A DNA stretch of 47,285 bases from contig JBLMXZ010000093.1 in assembly GCA_050258015.1 (NCBI GenBank), forward strand, positions 1 through 47,285, given 5' to 3'. Shown one piece after another: positions 6,001-27,815 of this stretch. Origin of the DNA: Deltaproteobacteria bacterium (GTDB lineage Bacteria > Omnitrophota > Gorgyraeia > Velamenicoccales > Velamenicoccaceae). A model generated the notes under the pieces. The model did no database searches. It had not been told where the DNA came from and worked only from the letters and a program-made list of their open reading frames with translations. Numbering within the stretch: position 1 is the stretch's first letter; each line of letters begins with the position of its first letter. The translations under genes were made by a program, and so were the position numbers.

Positions 6001-9000
6001 ATACTCAAGCTTGACGTTGGCGATAGAGCCGGTCCGGTTCCAGGTAATGGGATGCGAAGAACCCACCTCCCACGCCTCGGTCCCGGCGTTGGGCGACGTC
6101 AGCTCCAGAACGCCCATGATCTTGAAGTTGGCGTTCGAGATGTCGTTGACCGTCGAATCCGTCGTATCCACGACGCGCACGCGGGCCAGGTTCGAGATCG
6201 TGTCCGGGATGGTCCACGGGTAGGTTTCCGCCGAAGCGTCGGTGGAGGCGATGATGGTGTTGGGATAGGTCGAGCCGCCGTCGATGGAGTATTCGAGCTT
6301 GACCGTCGGGATGGAACCCGTGCGCGTCCACGTGATGTCGTGCAGCGACTCCACCGCCCACTGCTCGCTGCCGTTGGGCGCGGTCACGACCAGGTTGCCG
6401 CGGATCTTGAAGTCCGCGTTCGAAGTATCGAAGACCGAGGAGTCCGTCGTGTCCGTTACCTTGACGCGGCACGTCTGGGAACGGTCGTCGGGGATGGTCC
6501 ACTCATAGGTCCCCACGCCCGCGCCGATGGACGCGAGGATCAGGCTCGGATACGTCCCGCCGCCGTCGGTGGAGTACTCGAGTTTGACGTTGGCGATGGA
6601 GCCGGTCTTGGTCCACAGGATGTTGTATTTACTGCCCACGATCCACGCCTCGTTGCCGTTGGGCGCCGCGACCGTGATGTTGCCGCGGATCTTGAAGTTC
6701 GCCTCCGAATCGTTGTAGGCGTCGGTGTTGTTCGCGTCCGAGACGCGCACGCGCAGGCTCGAGGAGATGACGTCCGGGACGACCCACGGGTAGGAGCCCG
6801 TGTTGGGCGTCGAATCGATGATCGTGTTCGGGAAGTTCAGGCCCGAATCCGTCGAATACTCGATCTTGACGTTCGGGGTGGAGCCTATCTTGGTCCAGGT
6901 GATGTCGTGCGAAGAGCCCACGACCCAGACCTCGCCCCCGTCGGGGGAGGTCACGTCGAAACGCGCCTCGATGGAGAAGTCGGCGTTGGAGGTGTCGAAG
7001 ACCGTCGAATCCGAGGCGTCCGCGACGCGCACCCGCACCGCGTTGGAGACGGCGTCGGGGATCGTCCACAGGTACGCCAGCGATCCCGCGGGCGTGGAGG
7101 CGACGACCGGGTTCGGATACGCCTGCCCGCTGTTCGTCGAATAATCGATCTTGACGTTCGAGATGGAGCCCGACATCGTCCAGCTGATGTTGTGCTGGGT
7201 CTGGACCCCCCACTGCTCCCCGCCGTTGGGGGCCTGGACGGTCAAGACGCCGACGATCTTGAAGTTGTTGTTCGACGTGTCGGTGATGGTCGAATCGGTG
7301 GTGCTCGTTATCTTTATCTTCATCGTCGCGTTGATGTGGTCCGGGATCTGCCACGGGTAGCTGCCGGTGGCCGCGTCGGTCGACGCGATGATAACGGTGT
7401 CGTAACTCGTGCCGCCGTTATCGGAATATTCCAGTTTCACGTTCGAGACGGCCGAGCCGTAGCGCGCCCACGTGATGTTCTGGGTCGTGCCCACGCCCCA
7501 GGCCTCCCCGCCGTTGGGCGTCTGAAGGACCACGTATCCTTTGATGAAGAAATTGGCGTCGGACTCGTCCGTTACCAGCGAATCGTTGACGTCCGTTATC
7601 TTGACGCGGACCTGATCGCTGATGGCGTCCGGCACACTCCACGGGTAGGTCCCGGTCAGGCCGTTCGTCGAAGCGACGATGGTGAACGGATACGTCGACC
7701 CGCCGTTCGTGGAATACTCGAGCTTGACGGGCGTGACCGAACCCGCGCGCGACCAGGTGATGTTCTGAGACCCGCCGACGACCCACTCTTCCGTCCCGTT
7801 GGGCACGAGCAGGGTCAGCCGGCCGCGCACGATAAAGGTCGCGTCCGAAACGTCGGCGACCGTGTCGTTCGTCGTGTCTTTGACGCGGACCTTCATGGTG
7901 TTGGTGATGGCGTCGGGGACCGTCCAGTCGTAGTTCTGCGGCACGCCCGAGGCGCCGGCCGCGAGGGTGACGATGTTGACCGTGTAGTCCTCGGTCGCGA
8001 ACGCGTTGGTCGAATACTGCAGCCGCACCTGCGCGAACGTCCCGGTCGGGGTCCAGGTGATCTGATGCGGATCGCCGACGTACCACTCCTCGGTGCCGTT
8101 GGGGGCGTTCACCAGGACCTTGCCTTTTATCTCGAAGACATTGTCCGACTCGTCCCATACCGCGGAGTTGGCGGCGTCGCGCACGCGCACGCGCACGTTG
8201 GTGCCGATGCGGTCCGGGACGCTCCAGGAGTAGCTGCCGTCCGTCGCCGGGACCGTGGCGATGAGGTCGCCGCCTGCATAAGCGCCGCCGCCGACGATGC
8301 CGCCGTTCGTGGAGAAGTGCAGTTCTACGTTCTGCACCGCGCCCGCCTTCGTCCATGTGATCGCGTAGGCGTCACCCACCCGCAGCGAGATGCCCGTGGC
8401 GGAAGGCGTCACGAGCGTCACGGAACCCTTGACGATAAAGTTATTGTCGCTCTCATCCTTGACGCTGCTGTCCGCCGCGTTCTCCACCCGGATAAGCCCC
8501 TGGGTGGTCAAAGGCGTCGAGCCGCTGATGGCCCAATCCCATGTCCCGAGCGACGCATCGACGGCAAGGGTATTGAGCTTGGTCCAACTCGTCCCGTTAT
8601 TGGCCGAGTAATAGATATTAACGGAAGCGATGGAACCCGTCTTGGTCCAGGTGATCGGATACGTCGAAGCCACGTTCCAGGACTCGGTGCCGTCGTTGGG
8701 CGAGGTGACGGTCAAGGACCCTTTTATCTTGAAGTTGCCTTCCGAATCGTCGTAGGCCTCGCTGTTGTTGGGATCCGAGACCCTGATCTTGCAGCTGTTG
8801 GAGATGGCGTCCTGGACCGTCCACGGATAGCTGCCGGTATTGCTCGCCGCGTCCGTTATCGTCGTCCAGCTCGTCCCGTTGTTGGTGGAATATTCTATCT
8901 TGACGTCGGTGATGGCCGAACCCTGCCGCGACCAGGTGATGTCGTAGTTGGAGCCGACGATCAGTATCTCCTGGTCCACCGGGGCCGTGACCGTGAAGTT

Positions 9001-12000
9001 GCCGGCTATCTTGAAGACCGCGTCGGACTCATCGAACACGATGGACTCGTTATCGGCATCGGCGATCTTGATCCTGCAGGTATTGGAGACATGATCCGGG
9101 ACGGGGTTCCAGGCCCACAGCGACACGGATTCCGCATCGACCGTGGCCAGAGGCGTGACGACATAGCCGCTGCCGTAGTCCACGTAGATGTTGACGTTGC
9201 CCACGGTGCCGGTCTTGGCCCACGTGATGTTCTGGGACGTGCCCACGGGCCAGTTGTTGCCGCCGTTGGGCTGCGATACGGTAATGCTGCCCGCGATGCT
9301 GAAGACCTCCGAGAGGCCGTAGACGTTGGGGTTGACCGTGTCGACGATCTTGACGACCACGTTGTTGGAGACGTTGTCGGCCACGCCGTTCCAGTTCGCC
9401 TGGCCGAGGGTCGCGTCGACGTTGTTGGCGATGGTCTTGTCAAAAGGACCCGAGACGCCGTTGGTGGAGTAAAGAAGGTTGACCAGGGTGACCTTGGTGG
9501 AACCGCCGATGTTCCACTGAACGCCGTTGGTATTGTTGGAGCCGACGCGGATGACGGCGCCCAGGCCCGGCGCGGTCACCGTTATCTTCGGCCGGATGGA
9601 GAAGGGCGCGACCGAGACGCTGAAGACGTCGTCGTAGTTGTTGACGTCCGAGACGCGGACATAGCAGGTCTCGGAGTTCAGGTCCGCGACGCTCCAGTCG
9701 TAGGAGTTCGCCCCGGCGGTATGGCCGCCGTGGTTGGCCTCGATGGTCGCGTAGGAGCCGGCGAGCGAGGTCTTGTACTCTATCTTGACGTTGGTGACCG
9801 TACCCGAGGCGTCCCAGGTGATCTGCTTGGTCTCCCCCTTGTACCAGATCTGGCCGGACTCGGGGGCCGTGACGTCGAGGCCGCCCAGGATCGACAGGGC
9901 GTCCGAGGTGTCGCGCACGACGGTCGGCTGGTGGTCGGGGTCGTAGACGCGGACCTTCAGATTGCTCGTCAGGCTGTCGGGCAGGTTGGTCCACTGGTAC
10001 GACTGCTGGACGCCGGTGGCGCCGGCCGGACGCGTGACGTTCAATAAATAGGTAGCGAAGTCGTCCTTGGAGGCCTGGACCTGCACGTTCGTGTAGGTGC
10101 CGGTCGGGGTCCAGAGGATGTTCTCGTTGGTGCCGACGGTCCACTTCTCCGTCCCTGCCGGCGCGTCGAGGGAGATCTGGCCGATGATCTCGAAGGTATT
10201 GTCCGAGACGCCGTAGGCCTCGGAGTTGGCCTTGTCGACGACCTTGATCTTCATGTGCTTGCCCACGATCAGGTTCGGGATGTCCCAGTTATAGGATGCG
10301 GGCGTGGCCGGCACACCGGCCGCGGTCGTGATCTCGTTGGGATACGTCGTGCCGTCGTTGGTCGAATAGTAGATGCGCACGTCGGAGACGGGCCCCGAGG
10401 TCGACCAGGTGATGGCATAGGGGTTGCCCGTGCCGTAGGTCATGACGATGTTGTCCGCCGAAGGCGTCAGGACCGTGATGGCGCCCTTGACCATGAAGTT
10501 CTGGGAGACGCCGTAGACGGTCGTGTAGGCGCCGTCGACGATCTTGAGCTTGGCGCCGGTGGCCGAGAGGATGTCCTGGTCCGTGGGGATGTTCCACTGG
10601 TAGGTGTTGGCGCCGGCCGAGACCGCGTAGCCGGAGGCGACGGTGTAGGCATAGTTGTCCGTGCCGCCGTCCTTGGAGTACTTGATGTTGACGGTGTCGA
10701 TCTTGCCCGTGACGTTAAAGAGGATGTTCTGCTGCGACCCGACGGCCCACTTGGCCGAGGAGGTCGGGGCCGTGACGCTGAGGGCGCCGTGGATCCAGAA
10801 GTTCGAGCTCTCCTTGGCGGTGGCCGGCTGCACGGGGTTGGAGGCCGTCAGGCGGACCTTACAGGTCGTGGCCGCCGTGGTCGAAGGCACGGTCCACGGG
10901 TAGATGCCGGAGTTGGTGGCATTGCTGGCCAGGGTCGACCAGGAGGTGCCGTTGTAGAACTCGACCTTGACCTCGGTGACGTCGGTGCCGGTCGGGGTCC
11001 AGGTGATGTCGTAGGCGTCCCCGGAAGTCAACGGCGAACCGTCGGGCGTCAAGAAGGCGAAGCCGCCGATGATATGGAAGACCGCGTCGGACTCATCCAC
11101 GACGACCGTGGGGTTGTTGACGGCGGCGATCTTGATCTTGCAGGAGTTCGAGACCTCGTCCGGAATGGGGTTCCAGGCGAAGACCGAGACGGTCTCGGCG
11201 TCTATGGGCGACGGGTTGATGGGCGATATCTCGTAGCCCGAGCCGTAGTCCACGTAGATGTTGACGTTGCCCACGGTGCCGGTCTTGGTCCAGGAGATGT
11301 TGCGCGAGGCGCCCACGGGCCAGTCCTCGTTGCCGTTGGGGGCCTGGACGGTGATGCCGCCGACGATGTTGAAGATCTCCGACAAACCGTAGACGTTGGT
11401 ATTGATCGTATCGGCCACGCGCACGACGACCGTGTTCGAGACGTCGTTGGCCACGCCGTTCCAGTTCGCCTGGCCGAGGCTCGCGTCGACGTTCGAAGCG
11501 ATGGTCTTGTCAAAGGGACCCGCCACGCCGTTGGTGGAGTAGGCGATGTTGACGCTGGTGACCTTGGCCGAGCCGTTGCGGCTCCACTGCACCGCATTCG
11601 TGTTGTTCGAGCCGACCCTGATATTGGCGCCGAGGGCCGGGGCCGAGACCGTGATCAAGGGCCGGATGGCGAAGGCCTCGGCCGAAGTCCCGTAAACGCT
11701 GTTGTTGGCGTGGTCATAGACGCGCACCCAGCAATCCTCGGAGTTCTCGTCCGGGACGGTCAGCGGATACGAGTTCGCGCCGTCGGCGTGTCCCGTGTCG
11801 TTCGTCACGATGGTCTTGTTGAAGGAATCGCCGGAGGCGGTCTTGTATTTGATATCGACCGCGCCGATGTTGCCGGTCTCGGTCCACGTGACCTCCTTCG
11901 ACTGCCCCTTGACCCAGACGGTCGTCGCCCCGCTCGGCTGGACGTTCGAGATGCCGCCGATGACCTTGAAGGCGCCCTGGGACACGTCCGACACGGGGAT

Positions 12001-15000
12001 GCCGCCGATGCTCGTCACGCGCACCTTGAGCGTGTCGGCATTGGTGATGTCGTCGATGCCGGGCGTCCACGGATAAGGGCTGTTGGCCGAAGGATAGCTG
12101 GAGGTAATGGTGCGTGTATCGGAGGCGAAGTTGTCGGCGGAGTACTCGATCTTGATGTTGCCTATGGAGCCGGTCTTGGTCCATGTGATGTCGAAAGGCG
12201 TACCGACGGTCAGCGTGTTGGCGCCGTCCGGTGCCGTCAGGTCGATGGAACCTTTAAGCGTGCTGGCCGCGGTCGTCTCGACCTTGACGTCGGGGTTGCC
12301 GGCGTCCACCACGCGGAAATGGACCTGGGAGGAGATGTTGTCCGTCGGGGCCCAGGTCTTGCTCAAGCCCACAACGTCGTCGCCGATCTGCGTCCAGTTC
12401 GTCTTATTATTAAAGGAAACGAAGATGTCGAAAGCCGCGATGTTGCCGAACTTCGTCCACGTGATGTCGTACGGCGTGCCCACCACGAGGGTGTCGCCCG
12501 CGTCGGGATCCGGCGTCGACAGGAAGATGCTGCCCACGATGGCGTTGTCCGTATTCGAGACGTTCTCGTCGGTCGGGTCGGTGGCGCCTATCGGCAGGAC
12601 CTTGACCTTGACCGTGGCCGAAGGCGCATCCGGAATGGTCCAGCTGAAGCCTGTCGTCGGGCCGATGGAGGAATCCAGGTCTTCGGCGCCGGTGATGGCG
12701 GTCCAGACCGCGTGGGGCGCATCCGTGGAATAATACAGGGCCACATGACCCACCTGCCCCGTGCGGCTCCACTTTATCGTATAGGGCGTATTGATCGAGA
12801 GGTTGACCCCGCCGTCCGGCTGGGTAACATCCACCTTGCCCTTGATCGTAAACCAGCCGACGGACTGGTCCGAGACGGCCGAATCGCCGACCTTGGAGAT
12901 GCGCACGATGCATTTGTTGGAGAGCGTGCTGTTGGGGATCTGCCAGTTATAGGTAAGGGCAGCCTTGTCTATTTCGACGATCTCGTAAGGCGCCCCCACC
13001 GGCCAGGTCGATCCGCCGTCATCGGAATACTGGAGCTTGACCAGTTGTCCCGCCGCGAACCCCTTCGTCGTCCACGTGATGGCGTGGAGGTCCCCCACGA
13101 CCCATCCCTCCCCGCCCACGGGAGACCCGAGGGTCACGGTCGGTTTGATCTTGAAATCGGCGACGGAACTGTCCTGGACGGTGATGTCCAGCGCGTCGCG
13201 CACGCGGATACGCACGTGGTCGGAGACGACGGCCGAGCTGTTGGGGATGGTCCACGTGTAACTGCCGGCGGGTCCCGACGTCGACCCTACGACGGCGCCC
13301 GTATAACCGTTGTTACCGCTGTTGGTATCGTAGTCGATGGCGACGTTGGCGATCGAACCCGTCAAAGACCACGTGATATTCAGGTCCGTCTCCACTTCCG
13401 CGGAAAGCTCGGGATTGTTATCCGGGTAGCTCAGGATGACGCCGCCCTTGACCGCGAAGCCCGGGTCCTCCGTGACCGAATTGACATAGGTGCGGTCGGA
13501 GACCTGTTCGATCTTGAGCTTGCCCTGGGTCGTCGGCTGGTTGGGGACCGCGAGGGCATACGGCTGGCTCGTCCCGGCGTCTATCGTGGCCAGGGCCGCC
13601 CCGTACGCGCTGCCGCCGTCGGCGCTGAAGAAGATCTCGATATTACCCAGCGTGCCGGCGTAATTCCACGTCACGTCGATAGGGTCGCCGCCGATATAGT
13701 AGATGCCGCTCGTGGTGGGTGCCGTCATGCTTATCTTGCCTTTGATCGCGAAGCTCTCGGACTCCTTTTGGACCTCGGTCTCGTTGCCGACCTGCGTCAC
13801 CTTGATCTTGTTGTCCGTGCCGATGGTGTTGCGGCCGCCCCACGTCGCGGGAATCGTCCAGGTGTAGCTCTGCGGGCCGCTGGCGCCGGCCTCGCCGCTG
13901 GTGACGGGCAGGTACTCGGCCCCGCCGTTGTCGGAGTAATAGATGTTGACCGTGCCCAGATCGCCGCAGTTCTTCCACTCGATCAGGTGCGTGCTCGGCA
14001 GCGCGGCGCTGTTGACGCGCAGGGCGTCCGTGCCCGTGTTCGTAGAATCCGGCGAGGTGACGACGATCTTTCCTTTGATCGTGAAGTCCTGCGCGGAGGT
14101 GGCAGAGACATAGCTCGGCGCGTTGGCGCTCATGACCTTGACGCGCACGTGGCTGCCGATGGCGTTGGGGACCGCCCAGCTGTATCCGTCGAGGTTGGCG
14201 ATGGCCGCCCCGCCGGCGATAAGCTTATCATAACCGTCGTTGCCGCTGTTGGTGTCGTACGCGAGCTTGACCTGGCTGATGTTGCCGTAGGTATCCCAGG
14301 ATATCTGGTAGCTGTCCGTCGCGTCGTCCGGATCGTCGACCTCGAGGGTCTCCAGGCCGTTGGGTTGCGACAGGACCAGTTTGCCCTGGATAATGAGGGA
14401 ATTATCCGAGACGTCCGAGATGGTGGCGTCGTCGCTGAACTCGACCTTGAACTTGATATTCGCGTTGCGGTCGTTGGGGATGACGTTATCCGGTATGGGC
14501 TGCCACAGGTACGAGCGCGCGCCCGAGCCCGCCGGGTAATCCGTGACGATGGTGTTGTTGTACGGCTCCCCGCCCGTCGTCGAGTAATAGATATCGACCG
14601 AGGAGATGTCGCCCACCGCGGTCCACGTGATCTGGTGGTTGGTGCCGACCTCCCAGGTGGGCGTCCCATCGCCGTTCGACTCGCCCGTGATGGTGATGGA
14701 CCCCTTGATGCTGAAATCATAGGCGCTGGCGGCATAGACCGAGCTTTCCTTGCCGACCTGGTAGACCTTGACGCGCACGTTCGGCCCCACGATGCCGGCC
14801 ACGTCCTCTATCGTCCACTTGTAGCCGATATCCGCCCCGCCGGAAGGAATATTGTCCGAGGCGACGCCGTCGGCGATGAATCCCTGGTAATCGTCGCTGT
14901 CGCCGGGCGTGCCGTTGGCGCCCTTGCCGGAGTTGGTGTCGTAGCGCAGGTTCACCAGTCCGAAGCCCGCCGGGTTCGGCGTCCACTTGATATAGACCTC

Positions 15001-17727
15001 GTCGCCCACCTGATGGCTTATCCCCGTCGCGTTGGGATAGACCAGGACAAGGCTCCCCTCAACGGCGAAGAGTCCCGTTATGCCGCCCGTCCCGCCGTTC
15101 TCGTCCTCATCCCCATCGAGACCGACCCTTACCTTATTGGTCACCCCCATATGCGCCTGGACCGGCGTCCAGTTGAAATACCCCTGGCTCATCGGCACCG
15201 TTCCCAGAAGGATATCGTAGGAGGTCCCGCTGTTCTTGGACAAGCGCACGTTCGCGTCTCCGGAGAAGGTCCCGGTCGGCGTCCACTGGATGGTCTTCTG
15301 CGTCCCCACATGGAGCGTCTCGCCCGCGTGCGGCTCGGTCACCGAGACCAACCCCTTTATCTTAAAATTGTTGTCGCCCTCGTCATATATATAGGTATGG
15401 TCATGGTCCTGCACCCGGATCTTGACCGTATCGCTGATGGCGTCCGGGACCGGCCAGGAGTAGGGGCTCGCGTTCGGGATACCCGCGGGAGGCGTAACGG
15501 TCACCGCTCCCGTTCCCTTGTCGTAGAGGATGTCTACGGTCGTCACGGTCCCCTGCGTCGTCCATTCGATGTCATGGGTCGTGCCCACGCGCCAGACGAT
15601 GCCCGAACCGCTGGGCGTCGTCACGGTCAAGGTCTGCTGGATGGTAAAGTCCGAGCCCGAGGCGTCGCCGACGCTCGGAAAGTCTATGGAGACGACCTTG
15701 ATGCGGGCCTGGGAGGTGCCGGGCGCGGTCGGGGTCCACGGAAAGGGAGACGAGTCCGCCGCGATGCCGGCGGCGATGGTCTCGGTATAGGTGCCGCCCG
15801 AGTTGCGCGACAGCTTGATATCCACGCCGTTCGTCATGAAGGTCGAGCCCTTGACCGTCCAGATGACATCGTTGGATTCGCCTATCTTCCACGTCTGACC
15901 GCCTGTCGGCGCGGATAAGGTGATCTCGCCCGACACCGAGAAGTTGGAGTCCGAGGTATCGTAGACGCGGGACTCCTCGCCCACCTGCTCGACCCTCACG
16001 CGCACCTGATCGCCCAGGGGCAGCGGCCCCGTCGTCCAGTTGATGGCATAAGGGCTGGAGCCCGCGGCGAGGCCCGTGGCGATGGTCGTCGAATAGCTGG
16101 TGCCGGAATTCGTGCTGTACTTGAGGGCAACGGTACGGCCCGTCGTCGGGCCATAGAAGGTCCACTGAATATTCGTCGGGTCTGTATAGGCGATCGTCTC
16201 CCCGCCCACCGGGTAGGTCAAATCCAGCTTGCCGATGACCTCGAAGTTCGCGTCGGAGGTGTCCGAATAATAGGAGTCGTCGCCGCTCGCGTAAGAAGAA
16301 TCCCTCACCTTGATGCGTGTCGTAGCGCCGATGACCGCGCCGTCCGCCGCGGACGGCGTCCACGAATAGCTGGTGCTGCCGGAGCCGCTGTTGGTCACAC
16401 CCGAAGCCAGCGTGATGGGATACGTCCCTCCTCCGTCATTGGAAAGGAGGATGTTGACCGTCGCGACGCGCGCCGGCGCGTACCACGTGATGTCGTGCGC
16501 CTCGCCGCACTTCCACAGCTCCCCGCCGTTGGGCGAAAGGACTTTCATGGGCTCAAGCTGCACGCCGAAATAATCCATGACGGATATCTGGCTATTGTCG
16601 CCCCTCTCGGCGCGTATCGTGGTGTCATTGAGGAATTTGACGGCGGAGCGCGCAACGTCATTGGCCGTCCCGCCGCCGAAACAGTCCAGGGAGCTTACGG
16701 AGAACCGCCATTTGGAATTGAAGCTCCGGGAAAAGCCGAAATCCGCGTAACCGTAGGTGTTGGCGACCTTGGGCAGGAGACCGGAACCGTTCTGGGAAAA
16801 ACCGAGGCTGCCCAGCTCGATACAATAATAATAGATATCGCTCACCCCGCCGATGTTCCTCTTGTTGAAAACGACCGTCAGATCGGACCCGAGCGATCCG
16901 CGCCACCATTGGTCCAAGCTTCCGTCCGACGTTGTAAAGCTGAAGACCAAAAAGGCCTTGCTGCGGTCCACGGCCGTGGACAGGGTGCTGGTGACCATGA
17001 CGTCGCCGGAGGTGGCCTGGACGAGGCCGCACTGGACGGTCGAGTCGTCGCGCAGGTGCACGACCTGATACCACGCGTCGACGGCGTTGGTGGTGCCGGC
17101 GCGCCAGATCTTGATCTGGTCCTGCGTCGGCGCCGTGTTGTAGATGACCTGGGAGGCCAGCTGGATATCGATGATCTGGCCGGCGTTGTTGGAGGCGCAG
17201 TTCGTCGGATACGCCAAACTGAATGTCTTGCCTGAGGGGAAATCGTGGGTGAGGTTGACGGTCGCCGAGGTGGCCCCCACGGAAAAGCTCGCGGTGCCGC
17301 TCTCCACCTCGAAGGCGTCCGACACGACGACGTAATACTTGATGCCCTGGTCCGCCTCGGTGGAAGAGGCGTTGCGCAGGAACTCGATCTGGTTGTTGCT
17401 CGTGCCGCTCTGGGTGGAAGGATTAAAACGCGCGGCCCACGCCTGGTACTTGGGCGTGGTCTGCTGCGTGTAGAAGGTAAAGAAAATGACGGACCGGGTC
17501 GTATCGACGCTCTCCGACAAAGTCTCGAGCTTCTGGCTGAGGCTCTGCGTGCTGAACTCGCCCGAGAAGACGCGCGTGCGCGCCTCGGCAGACCCCGTCC
17601 CCAGGCCGACGATAAAGGCGGCCGCCAGGCACAGCGTTGTGAGGGTCCCCAGGAAGGCCTTGAGTCCGCGTCGTGCCGCTGTGCAACGCAGGGCCGCGCG
17701 CCGGCCGGTCCATGTCAAAGCCTCCAT
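1..17727 (-). CDS. Giant exported repeat protein (fibrillar adhesin-like); only the first 5,909 codons are present, the C-terminus lies beyond the left edge
   Basis: The minus frame whose codons end on coordinates divisible by 3 is open from ATG 17727 (GGTGAGGA just upstream) to base 1. The supplied track has no ORF in this frame, consistent with no in-window stop. Hand translation gives MEALTWTGRRAALRCTAARRGLKAFLGTLTTLCLAAAFIVGLGTGSAEA... (signal-peptide-like) at the start and ...HIGQYRTNTQEIVKIKEDLARI at bases 90-1. G/C third-position bias fits this frame. All long + strand ORFs here are Arg/Gly/Asp-rich mirror frames. Confidence 0.9.
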   Translation of the reverse strand, partial: MEALTWTGRRAALRCTAARRGLKAFLGTLTTLCLAAAFIVGLGTGSAEARTRVFSGEFSTQSLSQKLETLSESVDTTRSVIFFTFYTQQTTPKYQAWAARFNPSTQSGTSNNQIEFLRNASSTEADQGIKYYVVVSDAFEVESGTASFSVGATSATVNLTHDFPSGKTFSLAYPTNCASNNAGQIIDIQLASQVIYNTAPTQDQIKIWRAGTTNAVDAWYQVVHLRDDSTVQCGLVQATSGDVMVTSTLSTAVDRSKAFLVFSFTTSDGSLDQWWRGSLGSDLTVVFNKRNIGGVSDIYYYCIELGSLGFSQNGSGLLPKVANTYGYADFGFSRSFNSKWRFSVSSLDCFGGGTANDVARSAVKFLNDTTIRAERGDNSQISVMDYFGVQLEPMKVLSPNGGELWKCGEAHDITWYAPARVATVNILLSNDGGGTYPITLASGVTNSGSGSTSYSWTPSAADGAVIGATTRIKVRDSSYASGDDSYYSDTSDANFEVIGKLDLTYPVGGETIAYTDPTNIQWTFYGPTTGRTVALKYSTNSGTSYSTTIATGLAAGSSPYAINWTTGPLPLGDQVRVRVEQVGEESRVYDTSDSNFSVSGEITLSAPTGGQTWKIGESNDVIWTVKGSTFMTNGVDIKLSRNSGGTYTETIAAGIAADSSPFPWTPTAPGTSQARIKVVSIDFPSVGDASGSDFTIQQTLTVTTPSGSGIVWRVGTTHDIEWTTQGTVTTVDILYDKGTGAVTVTPPAGIPNASPYSWPVPDAISDTVKIRVQDHDHTYIYDEGDNNFKIKGLVSVTEPHAGETLHVGTQKTIQWTPTGTFSGDANVRLSKNSGTSYDILLGTVPMSQGYFNWTPVQAHMGVTNKVRVGLDGDEDENGGTGGITGLFAVEGSLVLVYPNATGISHQVGDEVYIKWTPNPAGFGLVNLRYDTNSGKGANGTPGDSDDYQGFIADGVASDNIPSGGADIGYKWTIEDVAGIVGPNVRVKVYQVGKESSVYAASAYDFSIKGSITITGESNGDGTPTWEVGTNHQITWTAVGDISSVDIYYSTTGGEPYNNTIVTDYPAGSGARSYLWQPIPDNVIPNDRNANIKFKVEFSDDATISDVSDNSLIIQGKLVLSQPNGLETLEVDDPDDATDSYQISWDTYGNISQVKLAYDTNSGNDGYDKLIAGGAAIANLDGYSWAVPNAIGSHVRVKVMSANAPSYVSATSAQDFTIKGKIVVTSPDSTNTGTDALRVNSAALPSTHLIEWKNCGDLGTVNIYYSDNGGAEYLPVTSGEAGASGPQSYTWTIPATWGGRNTIGTDNKIKVTQVGNETEVQKESESFAIKGKISMTAPTTSGIYYIGGDPIDVTWNYAGTLGNIEIFFSADGGSAYGAALATIDAGTSQPYALAVPNQPTTQGKLKIEQVSDRTYVNSVTEDPGFAVKGGVILSYPDNNPELSAEVETDLNITWSLTGSIANVAIDYDTNSGNNGYTGAVVGSTSGPAGSYTWTIPNSSAVVSDHVRIRVRDALDITVQDSSVADFKIKPTVTLGSPVGGEGWVVGDLHAITWTTKGFAAGQLVKLQYSDDGGSTWPVGAPYEIVEIDKAALTYNWQIPNSTLSNKCIVRISKVGDSAVSDQSVGWFTIKGKVDVTQPDGGVNLSINTPYTIKWSRTGQVGHVALYYSTDAPHAVWTAITGAEDLDSSIGPTTGFSWTIPDAPSATVKVKVLPIGATDPTDENVSNTDNAIVGSIFLSTPDPDAGDTLVVGTPYDITWTKFGNIAAFDIFVSFNNKTNWTQIGDDVVGLSKTWAPTDNISSQVHFRVVDAGNPDVKVETTAASTLKGSIDLTAPDGANTLTVGTPFDITWTKTGSIGNIKIEYSADNFASDTRTITSSYPSANSPYPWTPGIDDITNADTLKVRVTSIGGIPVSDVSQGAFKVIGGISNVQPSGATTVWVKGQSKEVTWTETGNIGAVDIKYKTASGDSFNKTIVTNDTGHADGANSYPLTVPDENSEDCWVRVYDHANNSVYGTSAEAFAIRPLITVSAPALGANIRVGSNNTNAVQWSRNGSAKVTSVNIAYSTNGVAGPFDKTIASNVDASLGQANWNGVANDVSNTVVVRVADTINTNVYGLSEIFNIVGGITVQAPNGNEDWPVGASRNISWTKTGTVGNVNIYVDYGSGYEISPINPSPIDAETVSVFAWNPIPDEVSNSCKIKIAAVNNPTVVVDESDAVFHIIGGFAFLTPDGSPLTSGDAYDITWTPTGTDVTEVKVEFYNGTSWSTLASNATNSGIYPWTVPSTTAATTCKVRLTASNPVQPATAKESSNFWIHGALSVTAPTSSAKWAVGSQQNILFNVTGKIDTVNIKYSKDGGTDNYAYTVASGYAVSAGANTYQWNIPTDQDILSATGAKLKIVDGAYTTVYGVSQNFMVKGAITVLTPSADNIVMTYGTGNPYAITWSTSGPVSDVRIYYSTNDGTTYPNEITTAAGVPATPASYNWDIPNLIVGKHMKIKVVDKANSEAYGVSDNTFEIIGQISLDAPAGTEKWTVGTNENILWTPTGTYTNVQVQASKDDFATYLLNVTRPAGATGVQQSYQWTNLPDSLTSNLKVRVYDPDHQPTVVRDTSDALSILGGLDVTAPESGQIWYKGETKQITWDASGTVTNVKIEYKTSLAGSYATIEANHGGHTAGANSYDWSVADLNSETCYVRVSDVNNYDDVFSVSVAPFSIRPKITVTAPGLGAVIRVGSNNTNGVQWNIGGSTKVTLVNLLYSTNGVSGPFDKTIANNVDATLGQANWNGVADNVSNNVVVKIVDTVNPNVYGLSEVFSIAGSITVSQPNGGNNWPVGTSQNITWAKTGTVGNVNIYVDYGSGYVVTPLATVDAESVSLWAWNPVPDHVSNTCRIKIADADNESIVFDESDAVFKIAGNFTVTAPVDQEILIVGSNYDITWSRQGSAITDVKIEYSTNNGTSWTTITDAASNTGSYPWTVQDAISNSCKIRVSDPNNSEAYDDSEGNFKIKGSLTVTSPNDGTESWNVASTYPITWTKTGSIASVNIYYSANNGTSWTKLNTLAVDASLGTWDWAISGSTPLTTQGLIRVENAADSSVKDESDNNFIVKGSVTLVTPSATGISLRVGDAYAITWTKAGAVQNVELHFSTNGGIVGGGAYAGGDLIATVPATDGSYSWSVPDRIGTNVRVRVRDAANSAVWDESDNVFEIKGKVLVNAPNGTEEWYVGDPHQITWTPTGTFAQVRLQYSTNAFATEDYTVNIVTLAAGASGVPQNYDWTVPDAITNTMKVRVKDTTNDTVADVSDATFIVRGRLTLLVPNGTEEWVVGGSQNITWSRAGSVTPVKLEYSTNGGSTYPFTIVASTNGLTGTYPWSVPDAISDQVRVKITDVNDSLVTDESDANFFIKGYVVLQTPNGGEAWGVGTTQNITWARYGSAVSNVKLEYSDNGGTSYDTVIIASTDAATGSYPWQIPDHINATMKIKITSTTDSTITDTSNNNFKIVGVLTVQAPNGGEQWGVQTQHNISWTMSGSISNVKIDYSTNSGQAYPNPVVASTPAGSLAYLWTIPDAVSNAVRVRVADASDSTVFDTSNADFSIEARFDVTSPDGGEVWVVGSSHDITWTKIGSTPNVKIEYSTDSGLNFPNTIIDSTPNTGSYPWVVPDVISSSLRVRVSDANNTDAYNDSEANFKIRGNITVAAPNGNEAWIVGSKYNILWTKTGSIANVKLEYSTDGGGTYPSLILASIGAGVGTYEWTIPDDRSQTCRVKVTDTTDSSVFDTSNADFKIRGNLVVTAPNGSEQWAVESLHDITWTRTGSIPTVKLEYSIDGGSTYPNTIIASTDASAETYPWTIPDTISNLARVRVVDTTDSTVNDISNANFKIMGVLELTSPNAGTEAWEVGSSHPITWNRTGSIANVKLEYSIDGGSTFPYTIAASVAAAGGTYTWNPVPDNMTTQGRVRVSATTDASVNDVSAADFKIIGKLTVTAPDGGEVWPVGTTQSINWTRVGTLLTAVKIDYSLDGGVTYPNAIVATTAAATGNYPWSVPDAISSSVRVKVTNVDDTNVFDASDANFKIRGDLILSAPNGSEVWLINSNHSITWVKNGSIGNARLDYSTDGGATYPYNITTSVNAALQTLNWVIPDRPSIQVRVKIADAGDATVFDFSDANFTIRGGFTITAPNGGEKWPVGSSQSITWNTFGSIANVKIEYSKNNGTNWSVISNSETNLGTYGWTVPDAISTQCLVRIYDIGDPNAVDVSDAVFKIHGTLNVTAPNGGEQWGVGTAQDIIWTKSGSIANVKLEYSTDGGATFPNLIVNATPAAALTYPWTVPDSISANVKIRITDSTDTDASDVSDGAFKIKGAFLLTAPNGGEAWIVGTTHDIAWTTFGTVGYVKLEYSTNAGTDWNQIVASVANNGTYPWTVPDTISTTCRVRVSDANDSSAWDISNNNFKIRGNLTLTAPNGGEKWNVGSSQVIAWDRVGSIANVRLEYSDNGGATYVPIINQTPNAGTYAWTVPDAITTQARVRVTNYDDSTVTDASNANFKIQGTFVISSPNGGEAWIVGSSHDILWSTSGTINFADLAYSTDGGATYPNGIVTSLGNIGTYSWTVPDNVSGSVRVRVADSSDDEAFDVSNGNFRIRATVILTAPLGGETYKVGSTYNITWTTIGSIPNVKIEYSRFNFLTDINTIAAAAANSGSYPWTVPDRISNTVKVRVSDPNDAGANAVSGSDFRIITGLTVTAPNGGQMWDVGSSHDITWTCTSAQANVPDVKIEYSVDGGATYPYILAATPNDGVWTWDPVPDTISANVKVRVSDLADSTAYDASDSALKIRAKFTLEAPNGGEVWTVAESHDITWSTVGTVANVKLDYSLNDFGAAVPIIASTANDGAHTWTIPDSISTNVKVRVMSIGDTDAYDISDAAFKIRGDLRITAPNGGELWLINQNSAITWVTTGTIANVKLLYSMNSGATYPNTIVASTGNTNSYSWLIPDTATPSARVRIENTSDDTVYDTSDANFRIRGFFTLTSPNGGEEWVVSTAHNVTWVKGGTIGYKLLYSTDSGATYPNTIVTQADPAQNTGSYSWTIPDAISLTARVRIEDPNDAMTNDESDADFTIRGDFAVTAPNGGERWIALETRPITWATNAGTISDVKLEYSKDNFVSDVQTIIASTPNDGSYDWLVPDDRSASVRVRVSDVNDPRVYDVSNAAFTIDYYTITFELRDLLTNEALTNLSAVEKITGTENIVWQASGLTSPVVHEVPYGFYTTSFVATGYGEKALNYDFQDGKTDQAFTLYLETTTVHIWRAYSDFAYEPSTSTSSDALNVTSWLERDGFVVSGATDVTVEIYDGGTLIQTVSDNSPNAAGFFDMRWTPTTLQSGKAYGTITKITNASGAVFKTPGSFQVTEAQRLQDTQKAVEQMRDVTLPAFQTGISTLITDKMDTQENLITDKLDTQAVLITSKMETQTQLITTKMDQQQQIITDKTNLMVSTVNATLSSFETKSQEAIGKLQTGATKAVEAGENLEATAKRYSWKATVSPNPSLPGDLLTFSCQGPTRLTPVLSVYNYDNKAILIEKPMTEKETGLYVYDQLKADTGVFTPGKAYTYVITEPITGGLVSGSGTVESTSITAIAGLAAAAPEAERASKKVLEAVTTLQDVLVSDNAVNIGLALTNLQQSVEELPELLGKQMDKGSQAKLLNQVADRLKTLVGDSEGIDLQSMLEDALGENPTIKEIQSKTEAISGVIKFLSQLFEAKLGGMDTPVVSTSLAPGSVKFRIAVANPSSTRVQTVPVKVYLPAEVKPGDIMDLAGLTLEYDSQKSIYYVYSDGVELAPLESRLFEVEVEDIWFVDKNELASLRKQTEVALERLKNTDYFEAARLIGAQITERLDAIVKSETNDESMSRERHIGQYRTNTQEIVKIKEDLARI
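1325..1490 (-). repeat. Five in-frame 33-nt (11-aa, hendecad) repeats in the post-array coiled-coil region of the giant CDS
   Basis: ggtgatcag-type cores at 1336, 1369, 1402, 1435 and 1468, exactly 33 nt apart. Translation: LITDKMDTQEN LITDKLDTQAV LITSKMETQTQ LITTKMDQQQQ IITDKTNLMVS. Confidence 0.8.
2150..16550 (-). repeat. In-frame array of about 49 tandem ~93-100-aa beta-sandwich (Ig-like; Kre9/KNH-type 'Ser-Thr-rich GPI-anchor family'-like) domains inside the giant CDS
   Basis: Period ~282-300 nt. The + strand motif gccgccgttggg (PNGG on the minus strand), or degenerate versions, recurs near 2392, 2680, 2963, 3243, 3533, 3815, 4097 ... 15908, 16210, 16527 (counted by eye). Verified unit (4693-4983): FKIHGTLNVTAPNGGEQWGVGTAQDIIWTKSGSIANVKLEYSTDGGATFPNLIVNATPAAALTYPWTVPDSISANVKIRITDSTDTDASDVSDGAFKIKG. 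The family name is from memory of the motif pattern, not a search. Confidence 0.85.
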
Positions 17728-17788: not shown

Positions 17789-18310
17789 CTATTCTTCCTC
17801 GGGCTCCACTTCCTGGGCAAAGGTCACGACCGGCAGCACCCAGTACGCGACCACAACGTCCTTCATCGCCACATCCGGCGCCAGCTCGAACTCGATCAGA
17901 TAGGCATCCGGCTGCTCGATGACCTCTTTGCCCTCCTCGCGCATCTTCTTGCGCATGCCCTTTCTCATGACCTTGGTCAGGTCGAGCGCCGCCGCGCCGG
18001 CCTTCTTGTCGGCGCTGCGCAGGACGGCCTGGCTGCCGGAACCCGGCAGGGCCGTCGCCGGATCGTAGAGCTGATAGAGCTTCTCGATCGCGACCGCGTT
18101 GTACTGCTCGTCCAGGTCCCGCATGTCCGTGGAGCGCACGCGCGCCGCGGCGACCGGGATGCGGGCCGCCTCCCCTTCCGGAAGGGCGATCGTGCCCGGC
18201 GTCACCTGGATGACCATCGCCTTCTTGACGGGTTGCGGCTCTTCGGCGCCCGCCCGCGCCGCCGCGAGGAAAACAGCGGCCAAAGCAAAACAGAAGATTT
18301 TCGTTTTCAT
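17789..18310 (-). CDS. Small secreted hypothetical protein (173 aa) with signal peptide and acidic C-terminus
   Basis: ORF track. N-terminus MKTKIFCFALAAVFLAAARAGAEE is signal-peptide-like. The ATG overlaps the upstream stop as ATGA (18307-18310). The stop lies 61 nt before the giant gene start. No family recognised. Confidence 0.75.
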   Translation of the reverse strand: MKTKIFCFALAAVFLAAARAGAEEPQPVKKAMVIQVTPGTIALPEGEAARIPVAAARVRSTDMRDLDEQYNAVAIEKLYQLYDPATALPGSGSQAVLRSADKKAGAAALDLTKVMRKGMRKKMREEGKEVIEQPDAYLIEFELAPDVAMKDVVVAYWVLPVVTFAQEVEPEEE

Positions 18311-19464
18311 GGTTCGGCCCTCCTGTAATCCATGCTCACAAAAGAGAAATCCTGCGACGCGCCGTCTTGGGCGCGCAGGCTCAAGACACCCTGCATCCGG
18401 CCGTCCTCGACTTCGGCATGCCAGGACCCGGTCGAACCCTTCTCGCTCGTCTGCATCGTCTCCCAGGTCAGGCGGCCGTTCTCTTTTATTAAGGTATAGT
18501 GCGAGGCCGGATACCCGTTGAGCTCCAGGTTCTCCGAGGACATCTTTCCGTCCTTGAACGTGATCTCATCCACGGTCTGAAAGGGCGTGCCCGCCACGAA
18601 TTTGATCTGCCACACGCTGCCGTCCAGCCCCACGATGTCAAAGGGAATGACGACCCGGCCCGCTTCCGGCGCGGATTCTTCAACGACCGCCGAGGCCGAA
18701 TCGGTCCTTCTCTGGTTCTTCTGGTGAGCGTAAAAAAGGACGGAGCCGGCCACGGCCGCCACCACCATGCTCGAGATGAGCGGCAGGACAAGGCGCTTTT
18801 TGCGGGGGGCCGCTTCTTCCGCCTCCGGCTTCTCCAGCATCTCATAGATCCTCTTGGCAAAGTCCTCCGAACCCAGGCAGATCTTGCGGTGGAGCTCCTT
18901 ATGGAACGTGCGCCCCTCCTCCGCAGGCTGCTGTCTCATGTAATCCGAATAGGTTGCGGCCGATAAATGTCCAAGGACCTCCTTGACCTCCTCTTTCATG
19001 TCCACGACCCGCACCCCCTGCGGCGCAAATTCCGTGTAATGGCCGAGGCTGGAATAGGGGTAGTCCGCTTCGCGGCCCACGTGCGAAGGGTTCAGGTGGA
19101 TATAACGGGTCAAGCGCAGCAGATAGGGGTCCTTTTCGATGATCGTGGCGCGATAGCGCCCCCGGAAGAGATGACCCTGGCGGTTGTACTTTTTGTTGTA
19201 ATACTTGGTGTAGGCCGAGGTCAGATTGTGCATGACCTCGGAAAGCGTGCCGCCGCCCGCAGGGGTCTCAAGGAGGAGGTGCAGATGGGTCGGCAGAAGG
19301 ACAAAGGCAAAGAGGCGCGCGCCCTGCTGGGTCTTGTACTTGGCCAGGAGTTCCAGGTAGGCCGCATAGTCTTCGGCATCGCCGAAAAGATTCTGCCCCT
19401 GGATCGCCCGGGTCGTAATATAGTACAAAGCGCCTTCTATGTTTATTCTGGGAGCCCTTGGCAT
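18307..19464 (-). CDS. Membrane-anchored protein: N-terminal RAYT/IS200-like Y1 HUH domain (COG1943-type), one TM helix, ~110-aa extracytoplasmic beta-rich domain
   Basis: HUH motif in LLPTHLHLLLE. GHLFRGRYRATIIEKDPYLLRLTRYIHLNP matches the G-x-lf/w-q-gRY ... rYIhxNP signature, including the catalytic Tyr position. TM segment LVLPLISSMVVAAVAGSVLFYA. SD AAGGA lies 6 nt before ATG 19464. Confidence 0.8.
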   Translation of the reverse strand: MPRAPRINIEGALYYITTRAIQGQNLFGDAEDYAAYLELLAKYKTQQGARLFAFVLLPTHLHLLLETPAGGGTLSEVMHNLTSAYTKYYNKKYNRQGHLFRGRYRATIIEKDPYLLRLTRYIHLNPSHVGREADYPYSSLGHYTEFAPQGVRVVDMKEEVKEVLGHLSAATYSDYMRQQPAEEGRTFHKELHRKICLGSEDFAKRIYEMLEKPEAEEAAPRKKRLVLPLISSMVVAAVAGSVLFYAHQKNQRRTDSASAVVEESAPEAGRVVIPFDIVGLDGSVWQIKFVAGTPFQTVDEITFKDGKMSSENLELNGYPASHYTLIKENGRLTWETMQTSEKGSTGSWHAEVEDGRMQGVLSLRAQDGASQDFSFVSMDYRRAEP

Positions 19465-19528
19465 CTTCTGTCCTTTTTTGCCTTGACTCTTTCCGGTTCC
19501 CTGTTTTCTATTCTTTTTTTATCATTCA

Positions 19529-19570
19529 TGCCTGGCACTTCTTTCATTTTTCTCGTTTTGTGCCTGGCAC
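19529..19570. promoter_or_regulatory. Two copies of the palindrome TGCCTGGCAC (core TGCC-N-GGCA), 32 bp apart, in the 5' UTR between the leader terminator and the first cistron
   Basis: Exact 10-nt copies at 19529-19538 and 19561-19570. Because the core is self-complementary, the two copies can also pair with each other in RNA (10 bp with one central A.A mismatch, 22-nt loop). Confidence 0.3.
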
Positions 19571-19584
19571 CTTGCGCATGCCAC

Positions 19585-19615
19585 AAAAAAAGTCTCAGGC
19601 AAAATTACCTGAGAC
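19585..19615 (-). terminator. Rho-independent terminator in the leader of the RAYT-like/giant-gene operon
   Basis: Minus strand: GUCUCAGG-uaauuuug-CCUGAGAC (perfect 8-bp stem, 19592-19615) followed directly by U7 (19585-19591). It lies 120 nt upstream of ATG 19464. Confidence 0.7.
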
Positions 19616-19619
19616 TTAG

Positions 19620-19765
19620 AAACTAAGTTGCAGTTTCGGCAGCCCAACTATCCGCCAACTTTCTTTGGCGGACTTGTGGCTTTGCGTCCCCAGGTTTCCC
19701 TGCCTCCCTTTCGGGAGTTCTGCATAAAGCAGAGGTTTGCCTTTTCGTACTGCTCCGATCTGTCA
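19620..19765 (-). promoter_or_regulatory. Candidate c-di-GMP-I (GEMM-I)-like riboswitch aptamer
   Basis: Minus-strand RNA contains GGCAAACC (19734-19741) and GGGGACGCAAAGCCAC (around 19678-19691), which I recall as the two hallmark blocks of the class. It also has GAAA-capped hairpins (CUCCC-GAAA-GGGAG, CAGG-GAAA-CCUG). A long P2-like hairpin UCCGCCAA-agaaag-UUGGCGGA is flanked by CCACAAG/AUAGUUGG, which resembles a tetraloop receptor. The terminator follows. The segment between the two blocks is longer than in the textbook example, so the assignment is tentative. Confidence 0.4.
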
Positions 19766-19770
19766 CTATA

Positions 19771-19799
19771 AATATAACATTTTCAGGGGTGTTTTTCAA
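19771..19799 (-). promoter_or_regulatory. Sigma70-like promoter for the leader and operon
   Basis: Minus strand TTGAAA (19794-19799), 17-nt spacer, TATATT (19771-19776). Confidence 0.5.
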
Positions 19800-19813: not shown

Positions 19814-19848
19814 CCCCTTTTCGGGTGCCCTTCGGATGCCCTTCGGGC
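19814..19848. promoter_or_regulatory. Three direct 11-bp repeats phased one helical turn apart, immediately upstream of the -35
   Basis: + strand ccccttttcgg / gtgcccttcgg / atgcccttcgg (19814-19846). Minus strand CCGAAGGGCAt CCGAAGGGCAc CCGAAAAGGGG. Confidence 0.3.
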
Positions 19849-21842: not shown

Positions 21843-21924
21843 CAGCTGTTTAGCTGATTCGCTGATTAGCTCATTAGTAAAACCGTTGCGCTAAACAACG
21901 AAACAGCAAATCAGCTAATCAGCT
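21843..21924. repeat. Intercistronic hairpin element built from tandem octamers (type AGCTGATT)
   Basis: Left arm AGCTGTTT AGCTGATT CGCTGATT AGCTCATT (21844-21875). Right arm AAACAGCA AATCAGCT AATCAGCT (21901-21924), which is the inverted array. Confidence 0.7.
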
Positions 21925-27725: not shown

Positions 27726-27815
27726 TTCGAAGTCCGAAGACCGAAGTCCGAAATCCGAAAGATCCCGAATGTAAAGGCTTCTTCGGATCTCGGAATTCAG
27801 ACATCGGATTCGCGG
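27726..27815. repeat. Intercistronic hairpin element built from tandem heptamers (type TCCGAAA/TTTCGGA)
   Basis: Left arm ttcgaaGTCCGAAGACCGAAGTCCGAAATCCGAAAGATCCCGAA. Right arm TTCGGATCTCGGAATTCAGACATCGGATTCG. The left arm is ~80% identical to the left arm at 45767-45802. Confidence 0.7.

Follow-up and report, generated by a model that had tools for sequence, protein, structure and literature searches.

Contig JBLMXZ010000093.1 (47,285 nt, analysed over its whole length and called the window below) carries on its minus strand an open reading frame (ORF) at 18307-19464 whose 385-aa product, read from the ATG at 19464, joins the HUH core of a REP-associated tyrosine transposase (RAYT) to a membrane anchor and a β-barrel. 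The gene belongs to a conserved system that is undescribed in the searchable literature and is a new architectural and functional variant of domesticated HUH transposase. The order of this system is conserved in the related loci: a riboswitch aptamer, a terminator, short palindromes, the HUH-transmembrane protein, a small signal-peptide protein and a giant ORF. Our tentative explanation, to which we give a little less than an even chance, is that the protein has been domesticated, is mostly non-catalytic in its family, and would bind the palindromes from the membrane, regulating or tethering the giant-gene operon.

An earlier reading of the window from its letters (the original prediction) had described an intact RAYT-type HUH/Tyr signature followed by a helical linker, one transmembrane helix and a β-rich domain, and profile matches, structure prediction and structure comparison recovered each of these parts (Table 1). 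The N-terminal region is a Y1-HUH fold. The Pfam profile Y1_Tnp (PF01797) matches residues 32-123 well above its cut-off (E=4.9e-9, 36.8 bits vs 23), the NCBIfam equivalog REP_Tyr_transpos (NF047646) matches residues 5-138 at 72.3 bits, below its cut-off of 80, and the sole match in a sequence search of the PDB was the TnpA-REP protein of Escherichia coli. The HUH motif is H60-L-H62 in THLHLL (nt 19279-19287) and the tyrosine is Y121 in RYIHLNP (nt 19102-19104). Both are intact in the window protein and lie 59 residues apart, the published range in TnpA-Y1 being about 58-67 residues (PMC6006769). The start codon is supported by the conserved N-terminus MPRxPRI, where M1, R3, P5 and R6 are invariant wherever that end is present.

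The AlphaFold2 (AF2) model, built with 93 homologues as input, is confident across all domains (mean pLDDT 86.8, above 90 in the core). Its β-α-β-β-α-β-α core (residues 13-128) is followed by six short helices (140-211), then by one long helix (230-256) and finally by eight strands (283-382). The best match of Foldseek against the PDB was again E. coli TnpA-REP (4er8, E=6.5e-7, TM-score 0.74 over its 165 residues); 4er8, 2f4f, 2xqc and 2vjv all reach a probability of 1.00, and the transposases of IS200, ISDra2 and IS608 rank after TnpA-REP. In the helical extension, S139, G198 and F202 are invariant or nearly so, as is the motif Y135-P-Y-S-S139. These two linker motifs, YPYSS and LGSxxF, are common to soluble relatives that combine Y1_Tnp with Bac_DnaA_C, and a serine motif after the Tyr helix has been described for TnpA-Y1 subclass 2.1 (PMC6006769). 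The hydrophobic segment at residues 225-246 is the only one in the window protein, and 115 of 118 family members likewise have one. An N-in/C-out topology is predicted from the lack of a signal peptide, from a weak bias of Lys and Arg across the segment and from the Sec signal peptides on free versions of the C-terminal domain. Matches to PrgH, S6OS1 and CcmE over the transmembrane region were dismissed as noise.

A protein search returned 325 homologues, more than 100 of which cover 98-100% of the query (33-82% identity, 360-450 aa). Where named, the full-length homologues are almost all from Candidatus Omnitrophota. The alternative that a frameshift or misassembly fused a transposase gene to a membrane-protein gene, which the original prediction had considered, is refuted, since more than 100 independent full-length homologues come from many samples and the AF2 model is confident across every domain.

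For the comparison of loci, 80 related ones were taken from species-representative genomes. H60, H62 and Y121 are conserved at 92-93% among the 118 closest homologues. However, when 59 members of the membrane family were sampled more evenly, as species representatives, 28 had lost one or both elements (HUH 10, Tyr 6, both 12), and the other 31, window protein included, kept both. The replacements vary by lineage: QLN, SLT, RLS or ESH stand for HUH, and His or Phe for Tyr. In contrast, HUH and Tyr are intact in 19 of 20 soluble relatives (p=4e-4). The catalytically dead members have all kept the operon and the palindromes, and nearly always the riboswitch. G97, R103 and H123 are invariant across the family, and in the dead lineages the HUH core has a pairwise identity of 0.51 (linker 0.27, barrel 0.34). 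As the core stays the most conserved domain where catalysis is lost, selection must act on a non-catalytic property, for which binding is the obvious candidate. The proposal of a domesticated Y1-HUH domain is supported, in a membrane-anchored architecture without precedent, and the catalytic losses together with the persistence of the core fit a role in binding and not in cutting.

The leader of the gene contains a c-di-GMP-I riboswitch, unnoticed in the original prediction and preceded at about 20 nt by a promoter candidate. The Rfam model RF01051 detected the aptamer in 15 of 16 related loci tested (44.8-66.1 bits), and 14 of these matches are directly upstream of the gene. From the Rfam matches in related loci we built a family covariance model, R1, with which the window aptamer scores 80.5 bits. 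With R1, an aptamer was found on the same strand and at most 500 nt upstream in 54 of the 57 membrane-family loci with enough upstream sequence, and in none of 20 soluble relatives from other phyla (Fisher p about 1e-15). The aptamer has a G before GCAAAC, an A after ACGC and a C before the 3' strand of P1, which we take, by analogy with the Vibrio cholerae Vc2 structure, to be ligand contacts of the c-di-GMP type. The terminator is the putative expression platform of the riboswitch; its stem and T-run occupy the same place in nearly all leaders of the family. We rejected a further sigma-70 promoter downstream of the terminator and ahead of the gene, as there is no credible -10 and many loci have no room for one before the start codon. 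A match to the PyrR leader (23.5 bits vs a gathering threshold of 54) is a reflection of the terminator.

Many aptamers of the family deviate from the usual form. The first arm of the window aptamer has an insertion of about 31-41 nt that forms two extra small hairpins, and first-arm insertions were also seen in L002, L018, L019, L023, L030, L036 and L048 (related loci are numbered with the prefix L). Such aptamers measure 114-142 nt, the usual length being about 85 nt, and have lower Rfam scores. The aptamer of L011 (2494-2570) is the lone case among 16 aligned with an A at the presumed position G20 of Vc2 (AGAGCAAAC for AAGGCAAAC). In Geobacter aptamers, the same change from G to A reportedly goes with selectivity for 3'3'-cGAMP.

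After the terminator, nearly every leader of the family has a palindromic repeat, AAAGTGCCAGGCAC, usually in two copies. In the window, TGCCNGGCA occurs twice, both times in this leader of 119 nt. The family loci, 644 kb in all, have 56 exact copies within 350 nt before the gene and only 6 elsewhere, those 6 inside the same operon. The placement of the copies is strikingly regular. Of 45 loci, 39 have 13-16 nt between the T-run and the first copy and 41 have 12-16 nt, with no conservation of the intervening sequence. From copy to copy the spacing clusters at 20-23, 31-33, 42-43, 53 and 64 nt, which corresponds to a period of 10.5-10.7 nt (Rayleigh R of 0.87 over all values and of 0.73, with p about 4e-4, over the unique ones). 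The central base is A or T, and changes in one half-site (L009, L025, L050) are not compensated in the other. As single-stranded DNA (ssDNA), the window copies fold at -2.6 and -0.8 kcal/mol, no better than shuffled sequences. Whole-turn spacing, free centre, uncompensated half-sites and weak ssDNA folding together favour recognition of duplex DNA on one face of the helix, and on the last three grounds we rejected a hairpin reading for the window. Of the partnership with hairpin DNA that the original prediction had suggested, the conserved partner sites in the family leaders therefore stand, and the hairpins are not supported for the window.

Both palindromes of the window are upstream of the gene; nothing palindromic follows it, and its end overlaps the next ORF. 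In two loci the gene order separates the control region from the HUH gene: in L004 (9546-9700) and L027 (1543-1760), riboswitch and palindrome come after the HUH-transmembrane gene and directly before the part with the small and giant ORFs. In L039 (about 7450), a palindrome alone is in that place and no aptamer was found there. These arrangements imply that the control region goes with the giant gene and not with the HUH gene. In L030, an extra riboswitch that serves another gene has no palindrome after it. We also considered a sigma-54 promoter and rejected it: TGGCAC is present on the opposite strand, with no TTGC at the right distance. A literature search for the motif string returned eukaryotic primers only.

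The palindrome is not restricted to Omnitrophota. A scan of metagenome contigs for two copies of AAGTGCCAGGCA gave at least 120 loci. Among the matches listed, 29 of 131 motif pairs precede a gene of the family, 94 are in other contexts and 8 have too little downstream sequence; the covariance model finds the aptamer in 25 of the at least 120 loci listed. The loci of other contexts that we read contain intergenic arrays of GTGCCWGGCAC, tandem or inverted, on contigs with a GC content of 0.47-0.69 where measured. The array periods are about 10-11, 19, 25 and 44 nt (for example in L094, L109, L128, L096, L186 and L081), and some arrays adjoin the published TIRYT motif GGGGWSAS (PMC3733652). In L132, L177, L151 and L186, soluble Y1 genes have the palindrome on both sides, with the downstream copies inverted in L177 and L151. 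These copies, whose arms are A/T-extended, form stable folds (-5.5 to -8.0 kcal/mol, z about -3.5). This placement is the REPtron/TIRtron arrangement.

As GTGCCWGGCAC flanks soluble Y1 genes and forms dispersed arrays, it is the cognate repeat of this Y1 clade. No other indirect evidence speaks as strongly for the sites being read by the HUH domain of the window protein. In the Omnitrophota, the repeat appears to survive solely as the phased pair of a single leader. The motif-flanked soluble proteins are no closer in sequence to the membrane family than are other soluble relatives. Overall, GTGCCWGGCAC looks like an undescribed REP-like repeat of several phyla, unmentioned in the searchable literature. 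L123 (at 2678-3352) and L199 (at 517-1194) each encode a further Y1 protein, a soluble paralogue of 224 aa in which HUH and Tyr are intact; its gene lies some 1 kb ahead of the riboswitch and the membrane-family gene. These paralogues are bracketed by inverted repeats of their own (GGGACGGTTCTCCCCGCCCAGC...).

Two other readings of these sites have to be weighed. One is that, at least in lineages like that of the window, the protein is still an active nuclease of the RAYT/TIRYT type that nicks and rejoins DNA at the leader palindromes, possibly as a DNA switch, as a swivel that relieves supercoiling during the transcription of a membrane-inserted giant gene, or in a residual mobilisation of the repeats. 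The strong conservation of H60, H62 and Y121 among the closest homologues, the 31 members that keep all of them and the REP-type nature of the palindromes in this clade speak for it. However, nearly half of the sampled members have lost catalytic residues in varied ways while keeping palindromes and operon, the repeats are not dispersed in the Omnitrophota loci, the window copies are poor hairpins, and the conserved flanking polysaccharide genes (see below) argue against mobility. We consider an active nuclease unlikely.

We give a similarly small chance to the second, namely that the palindromes are read by another factor or act as RNA, the membrane protein being unconnected with them. They could be an extension of the riboswitch platform, REP-like hairpins that stabilise the mRNA or the site of an unrelated transcription factor. 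Such roles would suit the constant distance that the palindromes, as part of the transcribed leader, keep from the terminator, the CCAGG core, which resembles the terminator arms, and the gene order of L004 and L027, where the palindromes follow the riboswitch and not the RAYT gene. Yet the motif also flanks soluble homologues that have no riboswitch, spacing by whole turns is a property of duplex DNA and not of RNA, and the extra riboswitch of L030 lacks a palindrome.

The C-terminal domain has its own distribution. Modelled alone with AF2, it is an eight-stranded up-and-down barrel (pLDDT 91.5). No relative was found in Pfam, in NCBIfam or by profile search of the PDB, and no Foldseek match was significant; the resemblances to lipocalins, NHBA and fHbp are weak (best E=1.4e-2). 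Searched against 1.84 billion cluster representatives, the barrel profile gave 1,543 matches (931 at E<=1e-10), most of them 150-250 aa long. The stand-alone barrels that we read consist of a signal peptide, the barrel, a tail rich in Pro, Ala and Glu, and a basic C-terminal end with GWF or WW that might be a sorting or anchoring signal. The signal peptides support an extracytoplasmic location of the barrel. One protein, P0184, has three barrels in tandem. The barrel thus seems to define an undescribed and widespread family of periplasmic domains, which numbers some 1,500 clusters when grouped at 50% identity and has a link to loci of secretins and giant proteins.

The neighbours of free barrels recall those of the window gene. 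In one locus the barrel is followed by a 171-aa protein and a 6,823-aa giant with the repeats of the window giant, and other loci have a secretin, a TPR protein, the barrel and a large protein. In L203, genes for a secretin, a 348-aa protein and a separate barrel come first; an aptamer, a terminator and a pair of palindromes spaced by 21 nt lie further downstream and precede the genes of a RAYT-like protein that is catalytically dead (QLQ replaces HUH and Phe replaces Tyr; its identity is 39% over residues 1-220) and of a giant of 6,457 aa. From these contexts, the barrel appears to be a partner of the giant-protein/secretin system that has been fused across the membrane to the HUH core in the window protein. 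A second subfamily (328-342 aa) keeps the HUH core, the linker and the transmembrane segment and has a helical tail in place of the barrel; its loci share the riboswitch and carry a variant of the palindrome, and three small ORFs precede the large one.

These observations bear on a further alternative, in which the membrane anchor and the periplasmic domain are the essential part and serve the giant and the small secreted protein as their chaperone, anchor or assembly factor, the HUH domain being an evolutionary passenger that has no function on nucleic acids. HUH-less barrels in the same type of neighbourhood are in line with this idea, as is the tight ATGA coupling to the gene of the small secreted protein, which suggests a periplasmic complex. 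A passenger is nevertheless not expected to be the most conserved domain, even in dead lineages, or to have the invariant residues G97, R103 and H123. Moreover, the second subfamily and L203 keep the core, the linker and the transmembrane segment with a different barrel-replacing tail or no barrel. We regard this alternative, too, as improbable.

We therefore return to a membrane-tethered protein that binds the palindromes. In this scenario, the helix-turn-helix (HTH) tail of soluble TnpA-Y1 relatives of the RAYT/TIRYT type would have been replaced by a membrane anchor and a periplasmic barrel. The cytoplasmic HUH core, no longer transposing, would bind the two leader palindromes without cutting them. 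The tether and the periplasmic domain would make of it a one-component device of the ToxR type, by which the export or assembly state of the giant protein could be coupled to expression of the operon or to read-through into it, in series with the control by c-di-GMP. The first palindrome's fixed position, 13-16 nt past the T-run, suggests how: a bound protein would meet the RNA polymerase at the point of termination and may act as a roadblock or as a modulator of termination. Coupling of a ToxR-like kind is made plausible by the barrel's existence as a free secreted protein beside secretins and giant genes.

Several observations weigh against this explanation. The window protein itself retains HUH and Tyr, so catalysis may still matter in its lineage. 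The bias of Lys and Arg across the transmembrane segment, on which the topology partly relies, is small (3.47 vs 2.93), and the second subfamily, which lacks the barrel, indicates that a periplasmic sensing part is not universal. The known Y1 enzymes of the RAYT and IS200 types bind ssDNA hairpins, and the window copies are poor ones. We know of no verified precedent for duplex binding by a Y1 core; other HUH domains, those of plasmid RepB and of AAV Rep, do bind duplex iterons. The co-occurrence of gene and palindromes seems compatible with their being read by another factor and, as the palindromes are inside the transcribed leader, the action could be at the level of RNA instead. Finally, minimum-free-energy folds of full and truncated leaders from nine loci had no consistent anti-terminator and gave no on or off direction for the riboswitch.

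A bolder variant, to which we attach only a low probability, is tethering in cis during translation. The nascent HUH domain, first to leave the ribosome and before transcription and translation uncouple, would seize the palindromes upstream of its own gene, and the transmembrane segment would pin the 5' end of the operon beside the export machinery. The gene of at least 18 kb, and far longer in relatives, would then be transcribed, translated and exported at one spot, with the same protein, bound 13-16 nt beyond the riboswitch terminator, setting the frequency of termination. If this were true, a selfish element and its terminal repeats would have become both an anchor of DNA to the membrane and a gate for giant genes.

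With this protein, the HUH/Y1 transposase superfamily would gain its first membrane-anchored member, and the system would be a clear case of a transposase and its terminal repeats being domesticated together into a regulatory circuit. The giant genes of Omnitrophota, which are poorly understood and to which roles in attachment or predation are ascribed, would gain a defined control region made of a riboswitch, two operator-like sites and a membrane protein. Their switching thus becomes testable in vitro and in heterologous hosts.

Among known systems, E. coli TnpA-REP (4er8) shares with the window protein the HUH and single Tyr at equal spacing, as well as the status of a single-copy domesticated gene near its cognate short palindrome. 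The window protein differs from RAYTs in falling short of the NF047646 cut-off and in having palindromes as a phased direct pair, upstream only, where a REPtron has them on both sides of the gene. Its repeat is not dispersed, neither in the window nor in the family loci. In addition, the membrane family has a transmembrane helix and a periplasmic barrel, about half of it is catalytically dead and it belongs to an operon with a riboswitch. The closest soluble relatives are TnpA-Y1 of subclass 2.1, or TIRYT (33-50% identity over residues 1-215; PMC6006769; PMC3733652), which share GHLF(Q/R)GR(Y/F)K, YIHLNP, the serine motif after the core and LGSxxF. The repeats that go with TIRYT are not classical REPs; they are short or are terminal inverted repeats. 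In the soluble relatives of L061 and L056, Bac_DnaA_C follows a segment resembling the linker, whereas the window protein has no Pfam match to Bac_DnaA_C, HTH_23 or HTH_28 and continues into the transmembrane helix and the barrel. Unlike TIRYT, the membrane family has a fixed genomic context and decayed catalytic residues. The word "membrane" is absent from the survey of Quentin et al. 2018 (PMC6006769), and no membrane-anchored members are described in PMC3733652. The TnpA of IS200/IS605 (Y---Q motif, minimal core, multicopy element with subterminal hairpins, often with tnpB) is more distant: the window gene encodes YIHLNP in a protein of 385 aa with extensions, has no tnpB and is in a chromosomal neighbourhood conserved in up to 19 loci.

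Outside transposases, the nearest analogy is one of topology. ToxR, TcpP and CadC have a cytoplasmic N-terminal DNA-binding domain, one transmembrane segment and a periplasmic domain, and bind direct-repeat sites near the genes that they regulate. The likeness that the original prediction drew to them would lie in the predicted topology and in the logic, for which the free secreted barrels make a plausible case. It does not extend to homology, as the N-terminal domain is an HUH fold and not a winged helix of the OmpR type, and the sites of the window are inside the transcribed leader, downstream of a riboswitch terminator. Aptamers of the c-di-GMP-I class with terminators are known before large surface-protein genes of Firmicutes, such as cbpA of Bacillus thuringiensis (PMC7423583) and genes of Clostridioides difficile (PMC6200980). 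Here, by contrast, the host is from Omnitrophota, the first gene derives from a transposase, palindromes are present and the giant gene spans at least 18 kb. Published accounts of giant genes in Omnitrophota (10.1101/2023.11.21.568195; PMC10066038) report nearby secretion-system genes, PilZ downstream and GGDEF inside the giants. The window resembles these loci in the kind of giant ORF and in having an AAA_22/ExeA-like gene. These accounts mention no riboswitch, RAYT/IS200-like gene or palindromes upstream, and our literature searches for a link of riboswitch or RAYT to Omnitrophota giant genes found nothing.

Table 1. Features of the window in the HUH-transmembrane gene, its leader and the operon downstream
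Feature	Coordinates	Strand	Evidence or remark
Sigma-70-like promoter candidate, TTGAAA, 17-nt spacer with TG, TATATT	19771..19799	-	consensus match alone, 10/12, extended -10
c-di-GMP-I riboswitch aptamer	19635..19751	-	Rfam RF01051, 48.5 bits vs gathering threshold of 35, E=1.5e-6
Intrinsic terminator, 12-bp stem, 4-nt loop, T7 run	19583..19617	-	terminator scan
Palindrome 1, GTGCCAGGCAC, REP/TIR-type	19560..19570	-	14 nt past the T-run
Palindrome 2, GTGCCAGGCAT	19528..19538	-	32 nt downstream of palindrome 1
Shine-Dalgarno-like AAGGA, 6 nt before the ATG	19471..19475	-	read from the sequence
RAYT/TnpA-Y1 HUH core, residues 1-140	19045..19464	-	profile matches, AF2, Foldseek
Helical extension and linker, residues 141-215	18820..19044	-	AF2 helices 140-211; YPYSS serine motif, LGSxxF motif
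Single transmembrane segment, residues 225-246, PRKKR before it	18727..18792	-	hydropathy, AF2 helix 230-256
Eight-stranded β-barrel, residues 283-382, predicted extracytoplasmic	18319..18618	-	AF2; absent from Pfam and NCBIfam
173-aa protein, Sec-type signal peptide	17789..18310	-	start overlaps the upstream stop codon (ATGA)
Giant ORF, at least 5,909 aa, running off the window edge	1..17727	-	no stop from 17820 to base 1 (six-frame scan)

Downstream of the HUH-transmembrane gene, a small ORF with a signal peptide occurs at the same position in about 50 loci, often with the ATGA overlap. We rejected a common ancestry of these small secreted proteins: iterated hidden Markov model searches and hhalign separate them into at least four unrelated clusters that have only the signal peptide in common. 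The giant protein, a putative surface protein, begins with a segment resembling a signal anchor and contains Kre9_KNH Ig-like and Reelin-subrepeat-B repeats (Pfam). The original prediction had tied the HUH gene to the giant gene, and rightly so: they are in the same operon, and in 37 loci homologues of the giant ORF begin 400-900 nt downstream of the family gene and run off the 6-kb flank. It had, however, placed the giant gene on the wrong strand. The true gene is on the minus strand and leaves the window, and what appears on the plus strand as long ORFs (4933-10047 and 10255-15918) is its antisense shadow.

Upstream of the riboswitch, 20163-41870 on the same (minus) strand is a cluster for polysaccharide synthesis or of the lipopolysaccharide type. 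Its genes encode GT4 (WecA-like), PIG-L, AAA_22 (ExeA-like), WbqC, GT1, radical SAM/SPASM and DegT proteins, as well as methyltransferases, two GT9 heptosyltransferases, a flippase and a Wzy_C ligase. Several of them are syntenic in 9-19 related loci, and this recurrence of the polysaccharide neighbours argues for vertical inheritance and not mobility.

The window also contains short tandem arrays between genes. At 21844-21924, four copies of AGCTGATT are followed by their inverted complement (34-nt arms, 79% complementary). Further intergenic arrays are at 27728-27759 (CGAAGTC, 4.6 copies), 45774-45801 (TCCGAAA, 4 copies) and 19820-19846 (TTCGGATGCCC, 2.5 copies). The original prediction had offered hairpin arrays of the window, heptamer arrays among them, as possible partners of the HUH protein; we found no link of the heptamer and octamer arrays in the window to it or to its gene. 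Similar heptamer arrays are within the leaders of L020 and L035. Finally, a 21-nt tandem repeat, GGACGCCTTCGGCAGTCCGCA, is present in 4.7 copies with 97% identity at 41646-41744; it is part of the Wzy_C (O-antigen ligase-like) ORF at 40263-41870 on the minus strand, at the 3' end of that ORF.

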